The notes beneath the pieces were generated by a model. It searched no databases. It saw nothing but the letters and a program-made list of their open reading frames with translations, and was not told the origin of the DNA. DNA of 62,467 nucleotides, filler included, from Platydemus manokwari (taxonomy: Eukaryota): NCBI GenBank assembly GCA_037951405.1. It is 6 parts of 6 records of this genome, joined end to end, with 100 filler letters (N's around TTAATTAATTAA, not from the genome) between each part and the next. Parts side by side here need not be neighbours in the genome. Positions count along the whole stretch, not along the records: positions 21,269 to 31,527 come from JBBMOY011153104.1; 5 more parts are not named here. One strand, written 5' to 3'. The position numbers and the translations under genes were made by a program. Below are positions 90-60,205 of the stretch, piece after piece (position 1 is the first letter of the stretch; every line of letters starts with the position of its first letter).

Positions 90-390
90 GATAATAAGAT
101 TTGGTTAAGCTAATAAAAGGGGTTGTAAAATAATTTTTTTATTTATTGAATATATTGAAAAATTCTAAATTACTATTTAATTATATTCTTTAAAATATTT
201 TCAACTTTTATTTCAGTATTTAAGGAGAATAAAAATTGTTTGAAATTAAATATTAAATATACTCTAATTTTAAAATCGCTTAAAACTTGAATTTGTGATA
301 AACGGGTCAAAGTAAATCAATTGCGATTTCTCGAAAATAACCGAGGACACATTTTAAAATTATAAGCAAAATTTTTATAATTATTTCATA
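90..390 (+). repeat. Dispersed AT-rich repeat family (copy 1)
   Basis: Shares tttaattatattcttt-aaaa-atttt-aa-tttt and flanks with about 21020-21168 and 62160-62420, and with the reverse complement of 20730-20945. Confidence 0.6.
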
Positions 391-559
391 AAATTATTAA
401 ATATATAAGGAGTCTATATATAATTTAAAAAATTGTGAAATAGACATATAAGCGCATAAAGATAATATAAAATATAAACTAATAACAAATTAAAATAAAA
501 TAATAACAAAGGAATTTTTCGAACAAACTTATTTAAAATTTTAATAATTATATTACAAA

Positions 560-1765
560 GAATGTTGACAAAGAAATTACGGGCAAGAATAATTTGACTT
601 TATTAGACAAAACCTGCAAATTTAAAGCATTATTTCAACCAGTATCTTTATCCAAGGCCGTTTAAATAGTTTTATACTCAAATTTTAAAATCACTTTCTT
701 TCTAAGTAAATCAGATCATCTTATTTTATATGTATAGATGTATTGGTTATGTCAATTTATGTGGCACGACCTATATCTAAAAATCCTTGATGAATAGGAA
801 ACATGTTGGGGATTTGGGCCAACAAGTTAAAAATTAACAATACACAATTGACAAAATCCTGTGTTCGTATAATCTGTTGTAATCTATAAACAATATTGTA
901 TTATCTGCCTGTTAAAAGTAGTAATTTATATCAGTGTATGGTTAAGCAATGTTTATATCAATGTATAGTGTATTAATTAATATGAATTTTAATTTTTTAT
1001 ACGTAATGATTGTGTTCAAGTCAGCAGAACTAAATTTATCATTTTGGTAATGTCACGATGTATGTTTAGTAACATAGTTTGAATTCTGAATTGTTATATT
1101 TTATGTTTTGGTACATTTATAATTGTATCATTTTTATGTTGTAATAAATTATTCATGATCAAAAAGCGGTTGATTAAAAAACCAATATATTGATAATTAT
1201 AGTGACGTAATAATATTGACAATTTATATATATATATTTTTACAATTATTTGGTATTGGCACAAAAGGGAAATAAAATTATTTCAAAATATTTTAAATAT
1301 CTTCAATAATGAAAATCCAATAGTTAAGGAAAAATATTTAATATTTAATGGGAAATCCGTAAGGAATAGAATTTTATGTAACAAAATAAACCGTTTAAGC
1401 GTAAAAAATAAATTTCGTATAAATAGAAACATCAGAACTTGCCCATTATTCAGTTGAAACCACTAGTTTATTGTCTGTTAGCCCATAATTTATCTCAAAA
1501 CCGCTAGGAAGAATTATTCGATTGCTCGTCAGCAGTATATGTCATTTGCCATTACCAAATAGTAAGTTCGATTGTTATATAAAAAACTGATAAGTATTTA
1601 TCGTACTTATCGTTTAATATTTGACTATAGAGCTGTGCTCACAAAAAACTCTGTTGAAGGTATCATTGGTTTTAATCCAAGAGCAGGATGTATAAACCGC
1701 TTTTTGTCTTGCAATTGTAAGCCAGTCTTTGAACCAACATTTTTATTAAATGTATATTTGTAGCA
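560..1765 (-). mobile_element. Highly decayed Mutator/MULE-like transposase remnant
   Basis: Frameshifted minus-strand reading YKYTFNKNVGSK..YNCKTK..CSWIKTNDTFNRVFCEHS resembles a FLYWCH-type domain; a downstream PKSPTCFLFIKDF segment resembles the MULE C-terminus. Confidence 0.35.
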
Positions 1766-1879
1766 TTAACTTGTAATTTGTTGTTTTATATTTAATAAAC
1801 GTTTAGTACAAAAGGAGTTAAGTTATTGATCGAACATTGTATAATAAATAGTTATAAAATATTGAGACTGATAAAATTA

Positions 1880-2095
1880 GGAAACCCTTTCGATCATTGT
1901 TGCTAATCAATTCTATCATTATATAGTTTTGATTGGAAGATGAAAAAAATAATAACAATAAGGTTTTATAGTTTGTACTTTGCGCTTGATTAGAACTCAT
2001 TTGAGACTGATCAAAACAACGGTGATCCACAATAATCAATAAGAATACATTTGAGACTGACTAAAACAAAAATACCACAAGCCCGAAACACAAAA
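1880..2095 (-). repeat. Dispersed repeat of about 220 bp (second copy at about 35435-35640, + strand)
   Basis: Reverse complement aligns by eye: ttagtcagtctcaaa..attgtggatcac-gttgt-tt-atcagt..atgagt-cta-tcaagc-caaagtacaa-ctataaaacctta. Confidence 0.8.
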
Positions 2096-2691
2096 ATATG
2101 ATAACAATAATAATAATAGTATTAAAGATTGACGGGTTTTTATATTATAATAATAAGTTCAAATTGTAGATGCACAATTTGTAAAAAGATATTGATTAAT
2201 GTCGTAATATGAGAAGGATTTTTTAACGCAAATAATTTCCCAAAATATGGTTACCCTAAATCTCCCTGGACTCCAAACAGATAAGAGGTTGTTGTTGCTA
2301 GAACACTCGGGCGATTATAATGAAAATATTATTGGAAATATAAATAATAATATAATAAAATTCAATAAAAAGCAGTAAAATAAGACAAAATAAAATATAT
2401 TGATAATAAAATTTAATCTAAAAACAATAATTTTAAATAACTCAAGGCGGTGATCGCTATTGCCGGAGGAAGGAGTTGTGTGTCAAGAAAACAGTAAAGG
2501 GCGTACCGCTTATGTGCTCGGGTAAGCCTCTCGTGACAAAAGTTTGAAAGTGGGTAACTTTTAAGTGAGAACATATATGATTTTAAAAGACCTCAAGATT
2601 AACAATAGCCGTGGGTCGAAAAACAATTAAAAATTTACTCGTAGATTGCATAATAGAAATAAAAATATCTTCGGGAGAATCTACGGTGAAC

Positions 2692-2818
2692 AATTGGCAT
2701 ACAATAAATAAATTGGTATACAATAATTAGTTGCTTGTAAAAATTGGCTTCTTGCAAAAATTAGCTTCTTGTACAAATTAGCTTCTTGTGAAAATTAGCT
2801 TCTTGTAAAAATGAGCTT
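2692..2818. repeat. 17-bp tandem minisatellite (AATTAGCTTCTTGTAAA) x about 5.5
   Basis: Units aattagttgcttgtaaa / aattggcttcttgcaaa / aattagcttcttgtaca / aattagcttcttgtgaa / aattagcttcttgtaaa, preceded by two aattgg-atacaataa units. Confidence 0.85.
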
Positions 2819-3279
2819 AATATCGTAAGTGTGAATAGTCGAAATTATGCGACAACTGTGGGTTGATCGCTGCTTATATACTTGTCTGACTGCTTTGTTT
2901 GCAACGTCAGATATTTTCTCTACATCTGTTACTATTATTAGCAACACTTACACGTCAGTTCCAAAAATAGTAACAACCCACAAATTTAGTAGATAAAGAA
3001 TTTAAATTGGGGTAGTTTATTTCTAGAACTGACTTAGTTGCTAAAAAAAGATTTGCTGATCGTTTAATAATTTATCTATTAGGAGCAGTCAAACAAATAT
3101 AATATTTGATTTATTAAAACATATTTTTCTTTAAATAATTTTTTCTGATACTTTATAATTTTTCCCCTTATTGTTTTCTTAAATTGGGACTTAATTTGAA
3201 CAAAATTTTTTATATCTATTTATATTTATATTTTTAGTTAATTTGGTTGATCAAAATGGCTTGGTTAGTTCCCCACAAT

Positions 3280-3418
3280 AGTAAATAATAATAATAAAAA
3301 TAAAAATAATAAATATAGTGATAATAATAGTAACGGCAATAACGATAAAAATAATAATAATAATTACAATAATAATAATAATAATAACAATCACCGTAAT
3401 AATAATAATAATAATAAA
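3280..3418. repeat. Degenerate (AAT)n microsatellite
   Basis: Runs of ataataata; explains the spurious poly-Tyr ORF 3234..3425. Confidence 0.85.
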
Positions 3419-6056
3419 AGTACAATTCATGAAGATAAAATAAGATATTTAGTTTTATTTGATCTGAAAGAAAGAAACCAGATCAAAACAACAAAGGAAA
3501 TAAAAATAGTAGCAGAGAATATTTCATTATATATGTTTTACCTGAACAGATAAAGGCATATGATAAATGAAAATAAATATCGTAGCGGCCATTATGCACC
3601 AAATGGCACCAGCAAAAATACTATATAAGAACACGATAATTTAGTCAAATCACACTCACACATTTAAAGACGAAACAAAACCGATATTCGAATTCGACGA
3701 TTGCGATTATTAGTATTCTTCGACAGCCAAGATTATTCGCAAGTGCAGGTTTATTAGTTAATTTATTGCATTGTATACATAATCATTAATTTAATTAAAT
3801 TAATCAGTTTAGTTTGTGTCGTCGCTCCTGTTAATGGCTCTCCAGTACCCGGTACTTTGGATATCAAGCAGCTATCTACTTGCGTAGTGTGATTGTTTTC
3901 GTTTGACAATTGTATTTTCATTCTTCCTAAATAAATATTTCAATAAATTAATTCGACATTTTAATTCTAGCATCATCAATAATCGTTAACTTATTATCTT
4001 CACATTATAGTTCACCAACTGATTGCAACCGGACATTGGAATCCTTGTTGGCCACGATTAATAGTATTTTGGGTTTATCATTTAAACCGTTAGACAGTCT
4101 AATTTATAATTCTAATAGCTCCGTCATCATACGAGTTATTGAAACCTCATAAGAGCCAGGTCAAAATAAATGATCAACCCATACCTAATGATATATTTAA
4201 TATATACATTGATAATACTATACACTGACAATTAAGGAAGGACTTAGAAATTACACGGGTTTAAGGTCAAGATTTGAGACAGGAATAAATCTCAAAAGTT
4301 TCACAATAAATCATAAAACTTAAAATTATTTACATATAACTGTGGTCGAACCTCTCATTAATGTTCACTCTTTTGTGTAGTTCCCAACATCCCGATGACC
4401 CGATTATTGCTTCATTGGGGATTGTCTTGATTCTCTCTGTCTTTTCGAAAATTGACTCAAATAAGTTATTGAAAATTCACGACTGCAAGAACTAAATTAA
4501 ACCTTTGTTAAAAATATATTATGTGTTCAAAAGGAGAATTCTTTTGGCATTTGATTTATTTAGCGAACTTTACTTATTTTATTTTACACACTCACACACA
4601 CATATACATATTCATCGTTGGATATAAGCTAACAATATAACCTCAATATTATAATTTAAACTACAATATCATAAGCTCTGTTTATCAACATGTACGGTCA
4701 TAATCGTGTCACAATTCAATAATAAATTATCACATAAGACGGAATCAGCACTCAAAAGTAAAACGAAGAATAGAAGACAACAAAAAAAAGACTGGCTGTC
4801 GAAAATCACCCAAAAGTCAAAGACCAGAATACAGGTTACTGACCAAAAGAACTGGCAGTTGCTCACGGAATCCAGCCTCTTTTATAGATCTATTGTGTGT
4901 ATCCATTTGATGTTACGAAGCTTCGTTTTTCATTTGTTAAATTTGTCCGTACATAGATATGCTAGTAATTTCCCTTACATCTCTTGTGCCATTGGTAGAT
5001 ACCTGTGTTTGTTTCCATTTGTTTGCATACCACAATCGATTATTAACTTTTAAATACTAGATAGATACCAAAATTTAATTCCTACTCATCATCGTTATAA
5101 ATATAATGTTGTCCTACGACAGTGTATTAAGCAGTCTCTTGAAGTGGCACTGATATTCGTTTGTCATGAAAGCATAATTCTGATCAAGTCTGCATGTAAT
5201 TTAACAGCTGGGAATAAATACCGACTATTTAAGCCATGTATTAAGAAAACAGTTAAAAACTTTTGATTTTGAGCTCTTGATATAAGAAGTTTTTTATCGT
5301 TTCGAATTGTTTTATCGATATTAATTTGTGAAAAAAGGTCTTCAAAATCGTTTCCTTATTTAATCTTTTATTTTATGGTTTTAAACAAATCTTAAGAAAA
5401 ACTAACAAAATCTTAATCTGAAAGCCAGTTCGTATGCTGATATCATATAAGCATATATTCATGGATTGATATTCATTTCCTAATTTATTTATTCTGCTTA
5501 TTTATAGAGCCAGTGAAAATTGTAATTGATAATTCGGTGGACAAAAGATTCAATTGTCATTCCTGTACAGGAGAAATAAACTCCAGAAATGTTATTTTAA
5601 TATCTAAGAAATTGTCAAGAAGACATTAAGGATGTCATATTGAATACCATTTTCGACATTGCTTCATTTCCAGATTTACTGGATCTAATTATTAATATAA
5701 TATTAATTAAAATTATGATGAAACCAATATTCCAGTCATTTAAGAATAATAAATCGATAATAAATTATATTTAAAAATTAAAATACCTTGTGATCGATAT
5801 TCAATAATATTATAGATACAGTTATTATATATACGTCTTATTATTATTATTATCATTGATATTCAACAATATCTAATAACAAAAATATCATTATAATTAA
5901 TGGTATCGCGCAATTATCATTGTCATATCAAATTTATGATGGGATAAACCAAATGTCAAATCATGGCAACATTATTCTATAATCGATTTGATGAAATGAA
6001 ACCTCAAAAAATGATTACATCATCACGACCACTCATCTCAACACTATATTTGCTAC

Positions 6057-16199: not shown

Positions 16200-17160
16200 A
16201 AACCCTAAATATTATTTGGAGAAATTCATTATAGAATTGAAGAGATTCATCGAGCTGACTCAACAGCCAAGATAATTCGAAGAAACACTGGTGAAGGCTT
16301 TTATCACGATAGAATTGCTGTCAATATATGAAGCCACCAAAGGAAGAAATTTCGAAGAGAGGCTTAGAAAAGCTTTCGAGCCTAAAATGAACCTTGATAA
16401 ATATTTAAAGATACTGGAAAGAAAAGAAAGAAAGTTGCAATCAATTCTTCTCTCATTGTATTGAAACAATCAAGTCCTTATCATCACAGTACTAATGGTC
16501 TGATCGAGCGACAATTTCGAACAATACTTGACGTAATTACGAAAAGTACTCAAGACAAGAAATTCACAGATTGGATTGACTTATTGTCTGATATCGAATT
16601 TATGATGAACTCAACAATACAACAATCGACGCAATTTTCAGCAGCCGAAATAGTTTTTGGTAGACCTATTAATAAAGAATGGCAAAAACACAAATTACGG
16701 AAGATATAAGTGTACATCAATCAGAGAATCAGAGAAAACAGAATAAAAGGAATATTGAAAAACAACTAAGGGGTAGATATGATGAGAAAACCAAGGGAAA
16801 ATACAATATACAATACAAAATACAAAATACAATACGAAAAGAAAATACAATATTGGTCAATGGGTATTAATAAAAAGAGAAAACCCCAATAAAATGGAAG
16901 ATAGATATGAAGGCCCATATCAAATAATAGAAAAAATTCACGTTAGAAGTAACAAGATGATGAATGAGACTGGAAAAGTGATAATAAAGAATATAGAGTG
17001 TTTGAATGATTTTAAAAGAGAGGGGATGTAAGGGAGATTCCTAAATATAAAGGTGAATGTCGTATGTATGATGTGTGTATGTTGTTTGATTGCATGTTGA
17101 TTAGTGATTGCGCAATTGTCAGTTGTTTCAATACAAAAAACCTCCTAAGATGTTATTACA
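16200..17160 (+). mobile_element. Decayed Gypsy fragment: gag piece, integrase C-half, PPT and 3' LTR (17027-17160)
   Basis: SSPYHHSTNGLIERQFRTI..W.DLLSDIEFMMNSTIQQSTQFSAAEIVFGR and RYEGPYQIIEKI; PPT AAAAGAGAGGGGA directly before TGTAAG...TTACA. Confidence 0.88.
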
Positions 17161-17759: not shown

Positions 17760-18502
17760 AATAAATTAGAAAATACTATAACTGATTGAATTTTTAACCG
17801 GAGACCAAGGGGATTAATCGTTAGAAGATGTGACATTCAAAACTTTGTAGTAGATTTGGTTTCCAAAAATGAAATGTTGGATTTTAAAGCCTCAACGCAC
17901 TGGCTTGATGGATTTTTAAATCGTAATGAATTATCACTCGGAAAGAGAACCTCTATTTTTAAATTAGAGGATAATGAAATTGTTTCAAGAGCAATAATGT
18001 ATAAGAGATATGTTGGTAATATTGATTTTTAGAAATATCATTTGCCGTTTATGATTGCAATGGATAAGACAGCTGTATATATGGGAAAAGAATTGCACAT
18101 TCGTGAGGCATCATCAATCTATATTCCATCAACAGGTTATGAAAGCCAGAGGGTTACTTGTATTCTTGCACTTCGTTTGAATGGAACAAAGCCACGGCTT
18201 TTTATTAGTCGGCTTTATTTGAAAAAGGCTTCATAGCAAAAAATGAGAGATTCGGACCACTACTCAAAGATAAACTTAAATCACGGGAATTAATTGAGTG
18301 TGTTTAAAATCTTGTTTTTTATGAATATGTTACAGAAAAGGACGATTAAACTGGGTTTGATTAAAATGCCTGTATTTTTTAAACATTTCAATATTATAAT
18401 AAAAATATTTTATGACAATTTATAATTTTTTAAATATAAGCCCTACTTTTTTCATCAGAAAATGATATAGGCGGCCTCTTATAATAGGTAAAACACGGAA
18501 TA
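17760..18502 (+). mobile_element. Decayed pogo-like DNA transposon (transposase remnant plus right TIR)
   Basis: FKASTHWLDGFLNRNELSL (CENP-B-type HTH end) and IAMDKTAVY..STGYESQRVTCILA..NGTK (DDE N-part); terminal gcggcctcttataataggtaaaacacggaata resembles a pogo TIR. Confidence 0.8.
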
Positions 18503-18975: not shown

Positions 18976-19503
18976 TTAGTTAGTGATGGTTTTGACACTG
19001 ACGATTTTCTCTTCATTACAAGCTGACATCACTGTAATCATTACCATATCTCCTTTATCGAATCTCAATCTTATATCGTTTTCCAAATCTCCTCCAGGAA
19101 GTTGAACATCTTCTTTCATATCTCCTCTTTCTGACATCAAACTCACAAATCCATCATATGAAATATCAACCAATTGATATTCAATTCGTTTAACGATTGG
19201 CATTTCTCTATTAGCAGTTGATGGAGAAACATCTTCAAGTCTTTTATCAGTGAATATATCAGTAGCGACAACATGGACTTTAGCTGATCCGTGTTTACCG
19301 GTTTTACAAGTGCTCATATCGGTGATTTTACATGGTCGATCTTTGATCATGATGTATTGACCTTTACGGAAAGCACTCATTTGATTGGGAATTGTAAGAG
19401 AAGCTCCAGAATCGACATTGTCAAAAGTATCTTCGAATTCAGACTGCAAATACAAATCGAATCAATTGAAATTGAATGAAATGAATAAAATATTGATTAC
19501 CAT
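18976..19503 (-). CDS. eIF5A: Translation factor eIF5A; exons 19503-19501 (ATG only) and 19443-18976; 156 aa
   Basis: RPCKI.DMST.KTGKHG.AKVH hypusine loop and full-length eIF5A sequence; 57-nt GT-AG intron directly after the ATG (M|SEFEDTF). Confidence 0.96.
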
Positions 19504-21268: not shown

Positions 21269-22388
21269 GACTTAACTTACAATCATTCAAGATCAGTTCC
21301 ATATTTCTCCATTAAACTTTGGGTTAAGTTATAGAAATAGTCCAACTTATTGTTAAAGTATTGTGCTAACTTCACATCCAACTTATTGACTTGTTTTTTG
21401 GCATCTTTTATTTCATTTTCGCTTAGGTATATTTCCTTATAGTTAGTATAACCACTTGAGTATATCCCCTATCTTGACCCTTATGTATAAACCTCATAAC
21501 ATTTTTTCCTTCTTCACTCATTTATACAGTTAGTGTTTCTTTCATTATCATTTCAGATGTTTCCCTATTACTGTCAGGTAGATAACTTTCCGAAAACTTT
21601 GTTTCTATGAATATTTTTCCATTTACTGCATGTAACTTTTCCTTTTTTGTTAATAAGCATTGGTATAGGTTAGCCTTATACATTATTAATGATGTTCCTG
21701 TGTCGCATATTTCTTTTCATATTCACAATTTATCCATGTAGTCATTTTCCTAGTCTGAGCATCAAATGTAGCTTGAAATTCTCTTAATTTTATGATATAA
21801 TTTCTTAATGCTACTACTTTTTCTAATGTCTTATTCCAAACCCTTACAGTAACTTCCTGAACCTCTCCATCCTGCAGATCCTATTTTTTGTCTCGTTATC
21901 CTTTTTTCTAATGTTATTGCATATCCGTGCGATTTGTAATATGTTCTTTTCTCAAATGCTTGTTTACATTTTTCCTCTGTTGGTATTTCTGGCATTAGTG
22001 CCCATGCCGGTTCTAATACCGTTGTATATGCTCCTGATGAACATGAGAAGTGAAATTTTAATTCCTGATACATTATTTCACATTACCTAGCTTTTTCAAA
22101 CAGAAATTCGGACTCTTGATACAAGTACATTTCATTAGCTATTGATTTTGTTAAATTTACAGGGTATGCTTCTGCAAATTTATCAATATTTAGCAATGAA
22201 TATTTTTGTCCCCATTGTGGCTTTCCACAATCATATCCATCAATTCCTGCATCAACTCCTCCTATTAATCCAACCAAGTACATTGTTAGCAACGTTTGAA
22301 CTATAATGGTAAACTTAGATTTTTGCTTAGATTGTTTTTCTGATAATTTTATTTCACTTTGCATTATGGGTTTTTCATTATCAGTCAT
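21269..22388 (-). pseudogene. Envelope glycoprotein, chuvirus G / herpes gB-like class III fusogen, N-terminal part
   Basis: Signal-like TIIVQTLLTMYLVGLIGGVDA, then GIDGYDCG..YSLLNID, YLYQ..*CEI, SCS, CKQA, CKG, KVVALRNYIIKLREFQATFD, INCEYEK.ICDTG, TNYKEIYL, DVKLAQYFNNKLDYFY..LILNDCKL. This matches the motif order I recall for chuvirus-type glycoproteins. Confidence 0.78.
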
Positions 22389-23564
22389 TTTTCTAATATT
22401 GACTGTATTAATTTAGGCCATCCTTGATGTTGATTAATTTCACTTTTAAATTCATTTGATATTAGTTCCGCTCCCTCTTCTCTGTTTGATATCTTATTAT
22501 TCATTAAATTCCTTGTTGTTTGCAAAGTCGTAATTATTCTTCCTCTTCATTTATTATACTAATTACTTCCTTAGCGGTTTCCTTATCAGATATTTTATTG
22601 CTTATTCGGTTTATTTCTTCTAGGTATTTACTTGTACAATGCACTAATGCCTTTACTTGCAATTTTTGATTTTTATCTAAGGCGCTGGCTTCGCCACTAA
22701 GTGCTTGTAGGTACTGTTTAATTTTCTTCTTTGCTTCTTATTTTCGGTTGAATTCTGTGCATGTATCTTATTTTTATCTAATGAGCGGATTTCGTCACTA
22801 AGTGCTTGTGCCTTATACTTGATTCTCCATTTTGCTTTTACTTCCTGGTCAGAATCTTTTTTGTTATTTTGATTTCCGAAACATGGATCATGATATTGTT
22901 ATTGTAAACATCCAATACAATTTCCTAACTCATTCTCTTGTTTTCTTATTTGCTTATATGTTTCTGGTGATTCTATTAACTTCATGAAATCTTTTCCGGA
23001 TGATTCTATTTCATCTTTTACTTCCTCTGTCTTCCTTTTCTTCTTTGATGTTTTTTTCTAATCATCTTTATTTTTATTACCCCCACTTATTTCTTCATCT
23101 ACTTTTTCATCCAAATCTACTGACCATTGTCTGTTAACTTTTCTTTCTTTGCTTTTTCTTCTACATTTAGCCATTTCTATTATTCTTGGCTCATTAATTT
23201 CTTCTTCCTTATTTTTCTCACATTTTATCATATTTATATCATTATATCCCCAACACACGTTGTAATTTGTATACCTTCAAGGTATTGTTCTAGGTATATT
23301 TGGTTTTGGTGCTATTATGTTAATTGTTACTACATTTATCTTCTTCTCTGAGAATACATTTTTCAGTTCTTCCTCCTCTATTAGGATTCGTTGTTTGTAT
23401 TTTATGATTATTTTATTCAATCCCCACTCTCTTCTATTTATATTCTGTTCTTGTATTTTTCTTTTTAGATGTTTTACTCCTTTCTTTTTCTTAATTAACT
23501 TATAGCCCCCTAGGTCTTATTGGTAACTATTTAACACTTCTATTTTTACTATGTACTTTTCTTC

Positions 23565-35233: not shown

Positions 35234-36650
35234 CAGTCAACCCTCATTAATCAGAACTTCAATAATCCGAAAACTTCATATTCCGAAAAAAAATATTTAT
35301 TTCGTCAATTTTCGAACGTTTCCAGACAAATTTGATTCATTAATCTGAAACTTCATGATCCGCAATCGAAAACACTTTTTTGAATTAAATTTATAATAAT
35401 TTTTAAAATTTTGGATTGATGTTATTTAAATAATGTGTTTCGGCCTTGTAATTGTTTAATCATTCTTAGTCAGTCTCAAAATATTATGAACTATTGTGGA
35501 TCACTGTTGTCTTAATCAGTTTCTATGAGTCCTAGTCAAGCCCAAAGTACAATCTATAAAACCTTAACTAAACCATTTTATTCACTTCGTAATCAATACT
35601 ATGTGGAGATAGTATGATTGGCCACAATGATCCAATAATGCCTTTATTGTTATCAATCTTAAGGTCTATTATACCCTTTTATTTTACTAATCCTCAATCA
35701 ATGAATAGGATGTAATTTCACTACATATTTATTAAAATAACAAACAAATACAACTAATTAGGTAATTTTATGAATTCAATATACACTTAAATAAAAGATT
35801 AGACGCAACTTCCGGATTAAGAGACGGTTAATATCTTCAACTCTAAGAGTAAAACCAAATATATAAATATCCATATGTTTAGAAAAAGAACTTAAGTCAC
35901 AATTCATCCAAAGGCAAAAATTTGTGCAATAAAGGAATTAAAGAAGATGTCGCTGAGTTAATTGTCTCAAATTATCAGAAGAGAATCAAAACTGAACCTA
36001 GGGATTACTACGTTAACAGAAATTTTGAAAAATAAAGACAAATGGGAAAATTGTGAAAGCCCAAGCACTTACCCCAAACAATCTTCGAAAATTCATTCTC
36101 TGCTTGAGAATTCATTGATTGAATGGATATCTCGAATGGATGCGATAAATGGTTACGTGACTGATGAAATTATCATTACAAAAACTAAATGTTGATGACC
36201 TGCATTTCAGCAAAGAATGGCTCTATAGATTCAAAAAGTCGATTTAATCTGAAATTGAAAGTTCCCATGGAGAAACAAATTCAATGAATAAGGTTAATAT
36301 TTCAGCTCATAGAAAAAAATGGTTGAAAAATTGGGAGGAGTTGACCCAGAAGTTATGCTTAATATGGATAAAACTGGATTTTTTTTCAAGAATTTCCTAC
36401 AAGAGCGATTTTATCAAATGAAATAAAAGGTATAAAACAATCTAAAGTTAAAATAACCTTAGCTTTATGTTCAAATGTTAGTGTATCAGTTAACATTACA
36501 CCCTTTGTTAGTGGACATAGCAAGAAACCAAAATGTTTTACAGGATTAAATGTTGCAAGATACTGTAATTACTACGCAAATTCGAAAGTATGGATGTCCA
36601 CCCATTTGTTTAATAGTTTTCTGCTGAATCTTGCAAATATGTAATAATAG
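35234..36650 (+). mobile_element. Decayed Tigger/pogo transposon (left TIR after TA; CENP-B-like transposase remnant about 35875-36640)
   Basis: TA|CAGTCAACCCTCATTAATC-GAA start; LENSLIEWI..VTDEII..FSKEWLYRFKK..HGE; NMDKTGFFF; K.KITLALCSN; GHSKKPKCF; YYANSKVWM. Confidence 0.88.
35435..35640 (+). repeat. Copy of the roughly 220-bp dispersed repeat nested inside the Tigger element
   Basis: Aligns to the reverse complement of 1880-2095. Confidence 0.75.
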
Positions 36651-47449: not shown

Positions 47450-49700
47450 ACCTTCACTGCAGGCTTATCATTTATTCCTTCTTCTTTTTGCCATCAGTTT
47501 TAGCCAAGTTTGTCTAACATCTCTTCATTTTCAGAGTATATCAACTCATCGTTCAAGATATTTTATTGGTTGTCTTTTTCGATTATGCTTCTTGGGTTAT
47601 AAGATGCCTCGCTTCGATGGAATTGCCATTGCATATGGGATACCTGAATGTTGGACTGGATACATTCATATGTGATTGTCTTCATCAAATTTTTCTTTAA
47701 TCCGAGTTTTCTCAGTGTTATGTCATTTGTCGTTGGCCAGGTTCCGAGTACCCCGACCATATAAGTGAATAATTCAACTGACCATCCTGGTCTTGCTTTT
47801 TTATTTATTTCCTGAGATCCTCGTATTTTTGCATTTTGAGATTAACAGCATTTGTCAGCAGACGTTGTTCAACCATTGGGCATTTCAAATCGATTAGAAA
47901 GATTGGGCCTCTTCGGTTATTAATTACTTGCAGGTCACCTCGCAGTCTAGAACCTGTGAATTGGTAATGTTTTTAGACATGATCATCATTTTTTGTGTAG
48001 TAATTGATAAATTAATTTAATTTGTTCATGATTTTCGTGTGTTGTAGCATAACATGGGAATGAGACAGTTTTACACGTGATAAAGACGTGTGTTTGTGAT
48101 TCTACCTCGTACAGGCACTTTCTGTATTGATGTCTCCTCGTATACTTTTTGTTCAATGTTGGCAAGATATCAGAGCGTGCTTGATTCATAAATATAAATT
48201 CTGAAGTTGTTTAGCCTCCGTTGAATATCACTTTTTCCATATGGGCGAGGCAGTAGGTATTGTTTTTGTTTATCTTCTGCAACATATTTGTTGAGATAAT
48301 TTCAGTTGATGACTTCTGATGAAGCATTGACGCAGAAGTTTTAGAAGTTCTTTGATGTTTTTATGGCTAATCAGGTCTTCTCTTGTTATTTCTCCTTCAT
48401 CTGTGGCGATATTTTGGTTGACCCAAATGCCAATTTCTCCATCAATTATTTGGAAGCTGATTGACATCTATAATTCGTTGTTGGTATATTTGATTTCCTC
48501 TCTTATATTTCCCAAATAGATTGTATTGTTTCCGTTTCCATTGGATGTGAATTCAACTAGTTTAGGGAACCCATGATTGTCGGTGGTCGGTCTGCTTTCC
48601 ATAAAACTGTGCATCTTTAGATTGTGGTTGACACGTAGGCACTGGTAATGATCTTCAATCGCAATTTGAGGAATTTTTTGATAGTAGATTCCCAAAGCTT
48701 TGATTCTATCTTTGGATTGCATGTTCCATACTTGCCAACATTTGTCTGGTTTAAATTTGATTACTACGACGACTTTAATTGAATTCTTCAACATTTTTTG
48801 AGAACTTTAAGAGTCTTTGTTGATTAATGCTGTGTCCTCCGTATAAGCCAGGACATTGATTTGTGGTTATTCAGTATAACTCCACAGCTAATTTCTTGAT
48901 CCATTTGCACTAGAAGTGGATTTATTGCACTGTTGATAGCAACATCGGTACTTGGCATCCCTGCCTGACTCCTTTTTTGATCGCAATGTTTTTGGTAATG
49001 TAATTTTCGCAGTGAAAGGCAGTGTTGCAGTTATTGTAAAGACTCCTGATTATTTTTATAGCTACCTGAGACCCATCTTGTCCATTAAACATGAACAATA
49101 TGTCTGTATTCATTGAAGGAAAAACTTCATCGATATCTAGAAAACATAAGTTCATATTGTTTTCTTTCTTGTCGTGGAATCTCTTGAGGATTGCCCTTAG
49201 AATAAAGTTGTGTTCTCCACATCCATTGGTGAGACCAAGGCTCTTTTGCAGACTATTTTCATTGATCCATTGCGTCAGTTGTTTGCATAGCAGACCAGTA
49301 AAGATTTTATAGGAGTAATCGAGCAAGGCAAATTGGTCTCCGGGATTCGACTTGATAGTATTGTCCTTTCTGCTTGTTAGAAAAATGATTTTCAAGTTCT
49401 TTCTTTTTTGGATAGCAGTCGGCGTCATCTGATCTAGTTGTTGGAGAAGATTAGTATAATTGACAGACATATATCCGTTTTAGCCCTTTCCGTTGTCAAA
49501 TATTTTTAACCAAGATATGGGTTTGTCGCTTCTTTGATTGCACATAGACTTTCGACATGATCGATGAATTTATTACACATATTATTTAGTGATGTTGTCA
49601 TGATTTGGACAGTCAGTTCGGATACTGTTGATACTCCAATTCGGGGGCTTTCAAATTATACATATGCTTTTTACTCTTGAAAAACATTTACTTGTTCTAT
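47450..49700 (-). mobile_element. Decayed non-LTR retrotransposon of the restriction-like-endonuclease group (R2/NeSL-like)
   Basis: RT motifs (YKIFTGLL, NGCGEHNFIL, LCFLDIDEVFPS, KGVRQGC, LAYTED, FKPDKC), CCHC remnant (RKCLYEVESQTHVFITC), endonuclease (RLRGDL..DLKCP) and the VGVLGTW..ND..LRKLG tail. Confidence 0.88.
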
Positions 49701-59221: not shown

Positions 59222-60205
59222 ATGGAAAATAAATTACAAGTCAGTGGTAGTCATAAAGAAGAATTTACTTTCAAAGGTATTTCAAATATATTGAAAATGC
59301 CTTCTATTGGAGTTCAGTATTTGACCAGAAATAAAACTAAATCCATTGAAAATGTATCTTCAGAAGAAATGAAAAAGTTAAAAGAAATAGCAAGTACATC
59401 CAAATCACCTATTATGGACGTTTCTTGCTCGGTCAATAATAAAATTATATTAGTAGAAAATGTATATTCAGATACAGATACGTTATCGTCGGAAGAATCG
59501 AAAAAAACAAAAAATATTGGAAAAGCGAAAAGAACAATTAAAAGAAAAAAGCAAAATTTTAATTCTATTGAAAGTAAGTTAAAAGCTGTTGAGATGTATA
59601 TTGAAGGAAAAAGTTCAAAAGAAATAGCCAGTATTTTCAAAACGCACCAATCGGTGGTAGCACGATGGATCGAAAATAAAAATAAGTTATTAAAAAAAGT
59701 AAATAAACATCCGGATCAGATGTCATTGGAAGAAATGAGAAGATTGGAAAATATAGCAAATTGGACCGGAAAAGCTAAGAGATCAAAACCTAATTCTATC
59801 GATAATAGATTAATGGCCATTGATATGTATCATAAAGGAAAAAAGATAGAAGAAATAGCACATACGTTCAAAACAACCGTTTTGACAGCTAAACGTTGGA
59901 TCAAAAAAGATAGTGTCTTATTAAATGCAAGCTTATCAGGAAAGTCGAATATACCGAAAAAAATGGCAAATGAAAACGAAAGAGTTTTTAATAAAAATGA
60001 ATGGATTGGAAATTTGAAGGAGGAAACTCCTGACAATATATCTACTGAAAATATAAATGTTAGAACAATAAATCTTAAAAGGGATATCAGTGATTACGAA
60101 GATATCGATCAATTCAGAAAAAGAAGACGTCTGGATGGAAGTGAAAATGAAAGAAACAGAAAAAGTAATGGTTTGACTTTAATTTCTCATATTTATATAA
60201 AATAA
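59222..60205 (+). CDS. Protein with two tandem transposase/psq-type helix-turn-helix domains; alternative start ATG 59190 via a 41-nt intron 59277-59317
   Basis: Intact 327-aa ORF; NSIESKLKAVEMYIEGKSSKEIASIFKTHQSVVARWI and NSIDNRLMAIDMYHKGKKIEEIAHTFKTTVLTAKRWI; basic NLS-like RKRRR; no DDE domain. Confidence 0.75.
   Translation: MENKLQVSGSHKEEFTFKGISNILKMPSIGVQYLTRNKTKSIENVSSEEMKKLKEIASTSKSPIMDVSCSVNNKIILVENVYSDTDTLSSEESKKTKNIGKAKRTIKRKKQNFNSIESKLKAVEMYIEGKSSKEIASIFKTHQSVVARWIENKNKLLKKVNKHPDQMSLEEMRRLENIANWTGKAKRSKPNSIDNRLMAIDMYHKGKKIEEIAHTFKTTVLTAKRWIKKDSVLLNASLSGKSNIPKKMANENERVFNKNEWIGNLKEETPDNISTENINVRTINLKRDISDYEDIDQFRKRRRLDGSENERNRKSNGLTLISHIYIK

Follow-up and report, generated by a model that had tools for sequence, protein, structure and literature searches.

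A broken front half of a gB/chuvirus-G-type env gene was found at the end of one Platydemus manokwari contig. It very probably forms part of a retroelement copy that is decayed and truncated at its 5' end; the element is high-copy and likely a planarian Burro-like giant Ty3/Gypsy LTR retrotransposon (an errantivirus of gag-env-pol order). The window, i.e. the whole stretch of DNA analysed (62,467 nucleotides, filler included), comprises six contigs of 9-11 kb each, separated by N44-TTAATTAATTAA-N44 spacers, with a GC content of 25-29%. The env remnant occupies the extreme end of the 10.3-kb contig 21269-31527, with position 21269 being the contig end. The features of the element are listed in Table 1.

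Table 1. Features of the env-bearing element and the adjoining spacer, in the order of the minus strand.
Feature	Position	Strand	Evidence and remarks
Asn/Arg-rich gag tail	27031..27657	-	gag core and LTR absent; 5' edge of the element near 27600-27770
Degenerate CCHC zinc knuckle of gag, lacking the second Cys	26893..26934	-	tblastn match with the P0123 knuckle region (E=7e-4); without zf-CCHC Pfam match
Glu/Lys/Arg-rich, likely coiled-coil (Smc-like) segment	26272..26874	-	sequence composition; without significant Pfam match
Ubiquitin-like module, homologous to that in P0122, P0123 and P0128	25949..26084	-	custom profile, best of 1332 windows, E=0.001 (weak)
Beta-rich modules, ~530 residues, ubiquitin/SUMO-like in look	23290..24880	-	PF13881, E=0.0064 at ~24182-23931 (weak)
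Possible remnant of a Bcl-2-like domain (BH2-like end), adjacent to env on its upstream side	22405..22504	-	weak match (E=0.057), the top one among 996 windows; without Pfam match
Hydrophobic stretch ahead of the YDC motif	22248..22313	-	likely internal signal sequence; 17-residue Kyte-Doolittle mean 2.03
Env ectodomain remnant (PF24664, gB/chuvirus-G type)	21269..22247	-	covers ~55% of the family profile and is interrupted by 2 stops and at least 3 frame changes; runs off the contig end
Artificial contig spacer	21169..21268	.	N44-TTAATTAATTAA-N44; remaining env and any pol would sit past the spacer

The env remnant

The minus strand from 22316 to 21275 corresponds to ~55% of a class III glycoprotein of the chuvirus-G/herpes-gB type, counted from the N-terminus. 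The initial annotation had listed a series of env motifs that were to be read across stops and frameshifts, and all of these motifs were recovered in the order it gave on the minus strand of 22388-21269. The reading across breaks was likewise borne out: env is divided into four collinear frame segments (~22277-21842, 21841-21727, 21707-21443 and 21447-21303), with in-frame stops at 22085 and 21524 and at least three frame changes. Aligned to P0121, the closest relative found by database search, the segments matched consecutive, abutting stretches (residues 7-149, 154-192, 199-287 and 287-304, respectively) at identities of 32%, 46%, 35% and 61%, the last over 18 residues only. Since the segments align to abutting stretches, env contains no introns. 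In the long relative polyproteins, the hydrophobic stretch preceding YDC sits at residues 144-1365 and is thus internal to their chains, so that translation need not begin at the Met at 22388. Of the conserved cysteine pattern of domains I-II, eight cysteines are common to the remnant and P0121, not all family cysteines being kept in the present copy; the cysteine type, C1a, was assigned by eye only.

The likeness to class III env goes beyond chance. The first env segment matched PF24664 (Monjiviricetes fusion glycoprotein; profile positions 5-155 of 653) with E=9e-6 at 24.4 bits, which falls under the curated Pfam cut-off of 27, and the same scan on the whole 381-residue frame gave no match. 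A profile of 19 natural relatives matched three minus frames with E=1.4e-41, 1.6e-12 and 1e-9, respectively, with the remnant spanning positions 4-363 of 650 and the C-terminal domains and membrane anchor placed beyond the contig end. No match was obtained with the first segment in a word-index protein search (0/162 candidates) or with the window env segment in a sequence search of PDB chains.

A 359-base contig of run X1 was identical to 21339-21697 (zero differences), so the breaks in that stretch are real in the sequenced DNA; X1 may be the window's own sample. Judged by its sequence, the present env copy is broken and dead and cannot make a working env, and the suggestion that the element is potentially infectious does not hold for this copy, given the stops and frame changes in env. 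Stops and frame changes run throughout the element, which thereby lacks the uninterrupted gag, env and pol ORFs that define an intact errantivirus in PMC13524379.

Sequencing depth and upstream region

Strand skew was uniform from ~27700 down to the contig end. The summed contig depth of run X1 was 321-5850 over 21269-27766 versus 14-85 over the flank (depth of individual flank contigs, 8.7-10.3), dropping from 1214 to 59 at 27766; the element is covered hundreds of times more deeply than the DNA beside it. This summed depth is no copy number, as the tool warns, yet it marks a high-copy repeat. The 2298 aligned records were distributed by likeness as follows: 128 at 99+%, 302 at 95-99%, 825 at 90-95% and 1043 under 90%. 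Most copies have therefore diverged. Between env, with a depth of 5850, and the region upstream of it, with 3837, depth dipped to 720 (22295-22636), and one X1 contig leaves out 21996-22388; copies may differ at the Bcl-2/signal junction.

On the minus strand, an Asn/Arg-rich gag tail is followed by a CCHC knuckle, a coiled coil, a ubiquitin-like module, an acidic stretch, beta-rich modules, a Bcl-2-like remnant, the signal and env, and the upstream domain order is that of Burro as given in PMC6431247. Neither pol nor a gag core nor an LTR was found on the contig, and no pol lies between the knuckle and env. MATH, BIR and ankyrin domains gave no match in the 6.4 kb of this decayed, partial element. 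A motif at ~25950 was considered as a protease active site and rejected; it aligns with the end of the relatives' ubiquitin-like module.

Within 23290-24880 (minus strand), two units of ~190 residues, both starting with PVY, resemble tandem ubiquitin-like pairs by eye only; self-BLAST of this module region did not find a tandem repeat, and no counterpart of its ~530 residues was present among 14 long relatives. The upstream ORF 23568-24032 yielded a poor single-sequence model (pLDDT 42; VIA best Z 5.6), for which Foldseek gave no match at E<=0.001. For the same ORF, the ESM Atlas provided no usable match, and a locus scan of metagenome contigs gave no relative among 281 pattern matches.

The other contigs of the window carry animal genes (eIF5A, a CDK11-like kinase, a GPCR and a C2H2 protein). 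A repeat linking the env contig to the other five was not found by blastn, and no tRNA genes were found. The eIF5A gene (18976-19461, minus strand) is intronless and divergent, with ~55% identity to named animal and fungal proteins; its best named match, from Macrostomum lignano, reached 55% only, and it did not group with Macrostomum in a tree. In this uninformative 20-row tree it grouped only with unnamed metagenome sequences, in a clade without a named member among the clusters looked up. Four host ORFs gave no exact match. AT content, the architecture of the element and the similarity of env make a planarian host likely. Two further decayed Gypsy pol fragments (RNase H, integrase) lie on another contig at 11903-13395 (minus strand) and 16401-17031 (plus strand); a weak SAD/SRA match after the first integrase (E=0.005-0.02) is probably spurious, as it falls where the C-terminal region of the integrase is expected. 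An intact ORF of 327 residues with three transposase-type helix-turn-helix repeats was observed at 59222-60205 (plus strand), together with a probable non-LTR RT remnant (by eye, with no Pfam match) and Tc5/pogo-type transposase remnants at 48471-49479 (minus strand), 17790-18032 (plus strand) and 36372-36644 (plus strand).

Relatives of the env and their fold

A search of 1.84 billion proteins with env gave 19 matches at E<=0.001 (best E=4.8e-28), of which 17 matched PF24664, six carried zf-CCHC, protease or RT in the same chain and two had a Bcl-2 domain just ahead of env (PF00452, directly ahead of env in P0126 and P0136). None of the 12 relatives whose names were looked up was named as a virus protein. 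P0127, P0137, P0140 and P0150 contain env-PR-RT-RH-IN in one chain, a Gypsy-type domain set whose RT has YIDD and whose integrase has GPY/F. Searches of the pol-bearing relatives gave no match to a BEL/Pao family of Pfam. Knuckle motifs precede env in P0122, P0123, P0131 and P0137. In every long-enough relative env leads into protease or full pol, the exceptions being P0128, P0122, P0126 and P0143, whose ends lie inside env or shortly past it. The proposal of a chuvirus-G/gB-like class III env in a retroelement was upheld; the nearest relatives are retroelement polyproteins. Membership in Ty3/Gypsy is likely for the window element, as drawn from relatives at 23-39% identity.

The structural comparison with class III fusogens that the initial annotation had called for came out in its favour for a modelled relative. 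An AlphaFold2 model of P0126 (21-row alignment, pLDDT 69, pTM 0.40) matched the chuvirus-type G of Tacheng tick virus 4 with E=2.6e-40 and HSV-1 gB with E=8e-14 (Foldseek), the TM-scores to gB being low (0.27-0.32). The class III fold was seen for this modelled relative, and we infer it for the window copy through the collinear alignment. Locus scans with P0121 gave no relative in viral contigs (0 of 10) or in metagenome contigs (0 of 62).

The NCBI entry for P0137 carries the name 'Flavobacteriaceae bacterium' (MAG), which likely reflects eukaryotic contamination of the bin. P0123, P0124, P0127 and P0140 contain at least two aspartic-protease-like domains after env, an unusual multiplication of the protease; P0140 has up to six aspartic-protease-like stretches, plus ankyrin and C2H2.

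Known elements and alternative readings

Burro and GYPSM1 are planarian LTR retrotransposons of the giant Gypsy kind, typified by long LTRs and a total size over 30 kb; PMC6431247 refers to Jurka 2007 and Grohme 2018 for them. In PMC6431247 (2019), Burro is described with gag knuckles and Smc, Ubi2/SUMO-like and BCL2-like domains, with MATH, BIR and ankyrin accessory domains varying between families. Its env lies in frame between BCL2 and protease, matches the fusion glycoproteins of arthropod and fish mononegaviruses and was likened to gypsy/baculovirus F; the elements were proposed as proviruses, with decayed, frameshifted fragments in Dugesia japonica. The window element is like Burro in having a likely coiled coil and a Ubi/SUMO-like domain, the latter matched weakly but in two separate ways, followed by env; a single degenerate gag knuckle (E=7e-4) and a faint Bcl-2-like remnant (E=0.057) lie at the places expected from Burro. 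It is unlike Burro in that MATH, BIR and ankyrin matches are missing from this partial copy and in its extra beta-rich module region of ~530 residues. The env types also differ as described: PMC6431247 likened the Burro env to F, whereas the modelled relative of the window env folds as class III. That some relatives combine Bcl-2 with a class III env on a single chain indicates a gB-type, not an F-type, env in Burro.

Errantiviruses of Platyhelminthes were described with HSV/gB-type env only and in GAG-ENV-POL order in PMC13524379 (2026), with gB-type members in Schmidtea, Macrostomum and Prostheceraeus. Six of its nine flatworm elements are from S. mediterranea (Smed_errantivirus_1-6, cysteine type C1a), with 1-215 intact copies per element, and its main text contains no occurrence of Burro or Bcl-2. 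The initial annotation had placed the element in a lineage for which it knew of no described case; env-bearing planarian Gypsy elements are in fact published in both of these papers. A gB-type env and multiple copies are common to Smed_errantivirus_1-6 and the window element, and the motif and cysteine spacing appear similar by eye; the Smed elements are intact, unlike the broken, truncated window copy. Comparison by eye puts the window env closest to Smed_errantivirus_3 (supplement of PMC13524379), with 14 of 40 residues identical (~35%, ungapped) in the second frame segment. On this one 40-residue segment, the window element would so represent a different family.

Mobilisation in trans of a non-autonomous Burro-like derivative, which had kept gag, the accessory domains and env and had lost pol, is an improbable reading. 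It would agree with the lack of pol on the contig and with the module region that has no counterpart in the 14 long relatives tested; however, the contig stops inside env, so that the absence of pol is expected anyway, and the long-enough relatives, apart from the four exceptions named above, run from env into protease or full pol. The initial annotation had drawn a parallel to mosquito BEL/Pao elements, and capture of a chuvirus glycoprotein by a BEL/Pao element is even harder to support. Chuvirus (Jingchuvirales) glycoproteins and mosquito BEL/Pao env have the protein family (PF24664) and, judging from the modelled relative, the fold in common with the window env, and the BEL/Pao glycoprotein is reported to be homologous to one adjoining gypsy POL (PMC13524379). 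This likeness does not extend to the element as a whole: the pol-bearing relatives show Gypsy-type domains, and env here comes after gag and accessory domains with no intervening pol, as in the gag-env-pol order of the likely Ty3/Gypsy element.

Chance landing of an endogenised chuvirus glycoprotein gene (a non-retroviral EVE) in a retroelement fragment is very improbable. The best structural matches of the modelled relative are indeed chuvirus-type glycoproteins. These are, however, more distant, with 16-22% identity to P0126 among the top nine structural matches, and occur in a different genomic setting; identity to herpesvirus glycoprotein B, which has the class III fold in common with this relative (Foldseek E~1e-13), is 9-13%. 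The nearest sequences are retroelement polyproteins and not viral G, env and the upstream 5.4 kb agree in strand, skew and high depth, and no N or L gene match was found on the contig. Least probable of all, and largely refuted, is an intron-containing host gene, either for a secreted protein or domesticated and syncytin-like, to which the signal-like stretch and the Met at 22388 might point. The best matches are not host secreted proteins with introns, which the initial annotation had named as the finding that would speak against its proposal; instead, consecutive segments join up in the homologue and leave no gaps for introns, stops and frame changes interrupt the reading frame, and the region is present in high copy. 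The decayed Burro-like Ty3/Gypsy element stays the preferred reading.

Proposed mechanism and implications

Intact members of the element would encode one long polyprotein consisting of gag, coiled-coil/ubiquitin-like/Bcl-2-like domains, an internal signal, the env ectodomain, a membrane anchor, protease, RT, RNase H and integrase, an order pieced together from separate relatives. By analogy with class III fusogens and Drosophila errantiviruses, the internal signal would thread env into the ER, and cleavage would free it. Env may then trimerise as a class III fusogen on budding gag particles and fuse with neighbouring cells, by which the element could move from cell to cell and reach stem or germ cells, as analogous systems suggest. 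The Bcl-2-like domain may dampen apoptosis, and the ubiquitin-like domains may modulate ubiquitin/SUMO signalling.

The result, real but ordinary, is a further decayed family in a group already described, and a broken half gene gives no advance on the question of particle formation and cell-to-cell movement by the env-bearing retrotransposons of planarians. A bolder and rather doubtful reading is that of a new Burro-like family with copies in the hundreds, whose polyprotein has an expanded tandem ubiquitin-like array ahead of the Bcl-2-like domain and the class III env, i.e. a virus-like element that would decoy the ubiquitin/SUMO and apoptosis systems of its host while spreading between stem cells. 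If true, this reading would tie the Burro description of 2019 to the gB-type errantiviruses of 2026, a link absent from the main text of PMC13524379.
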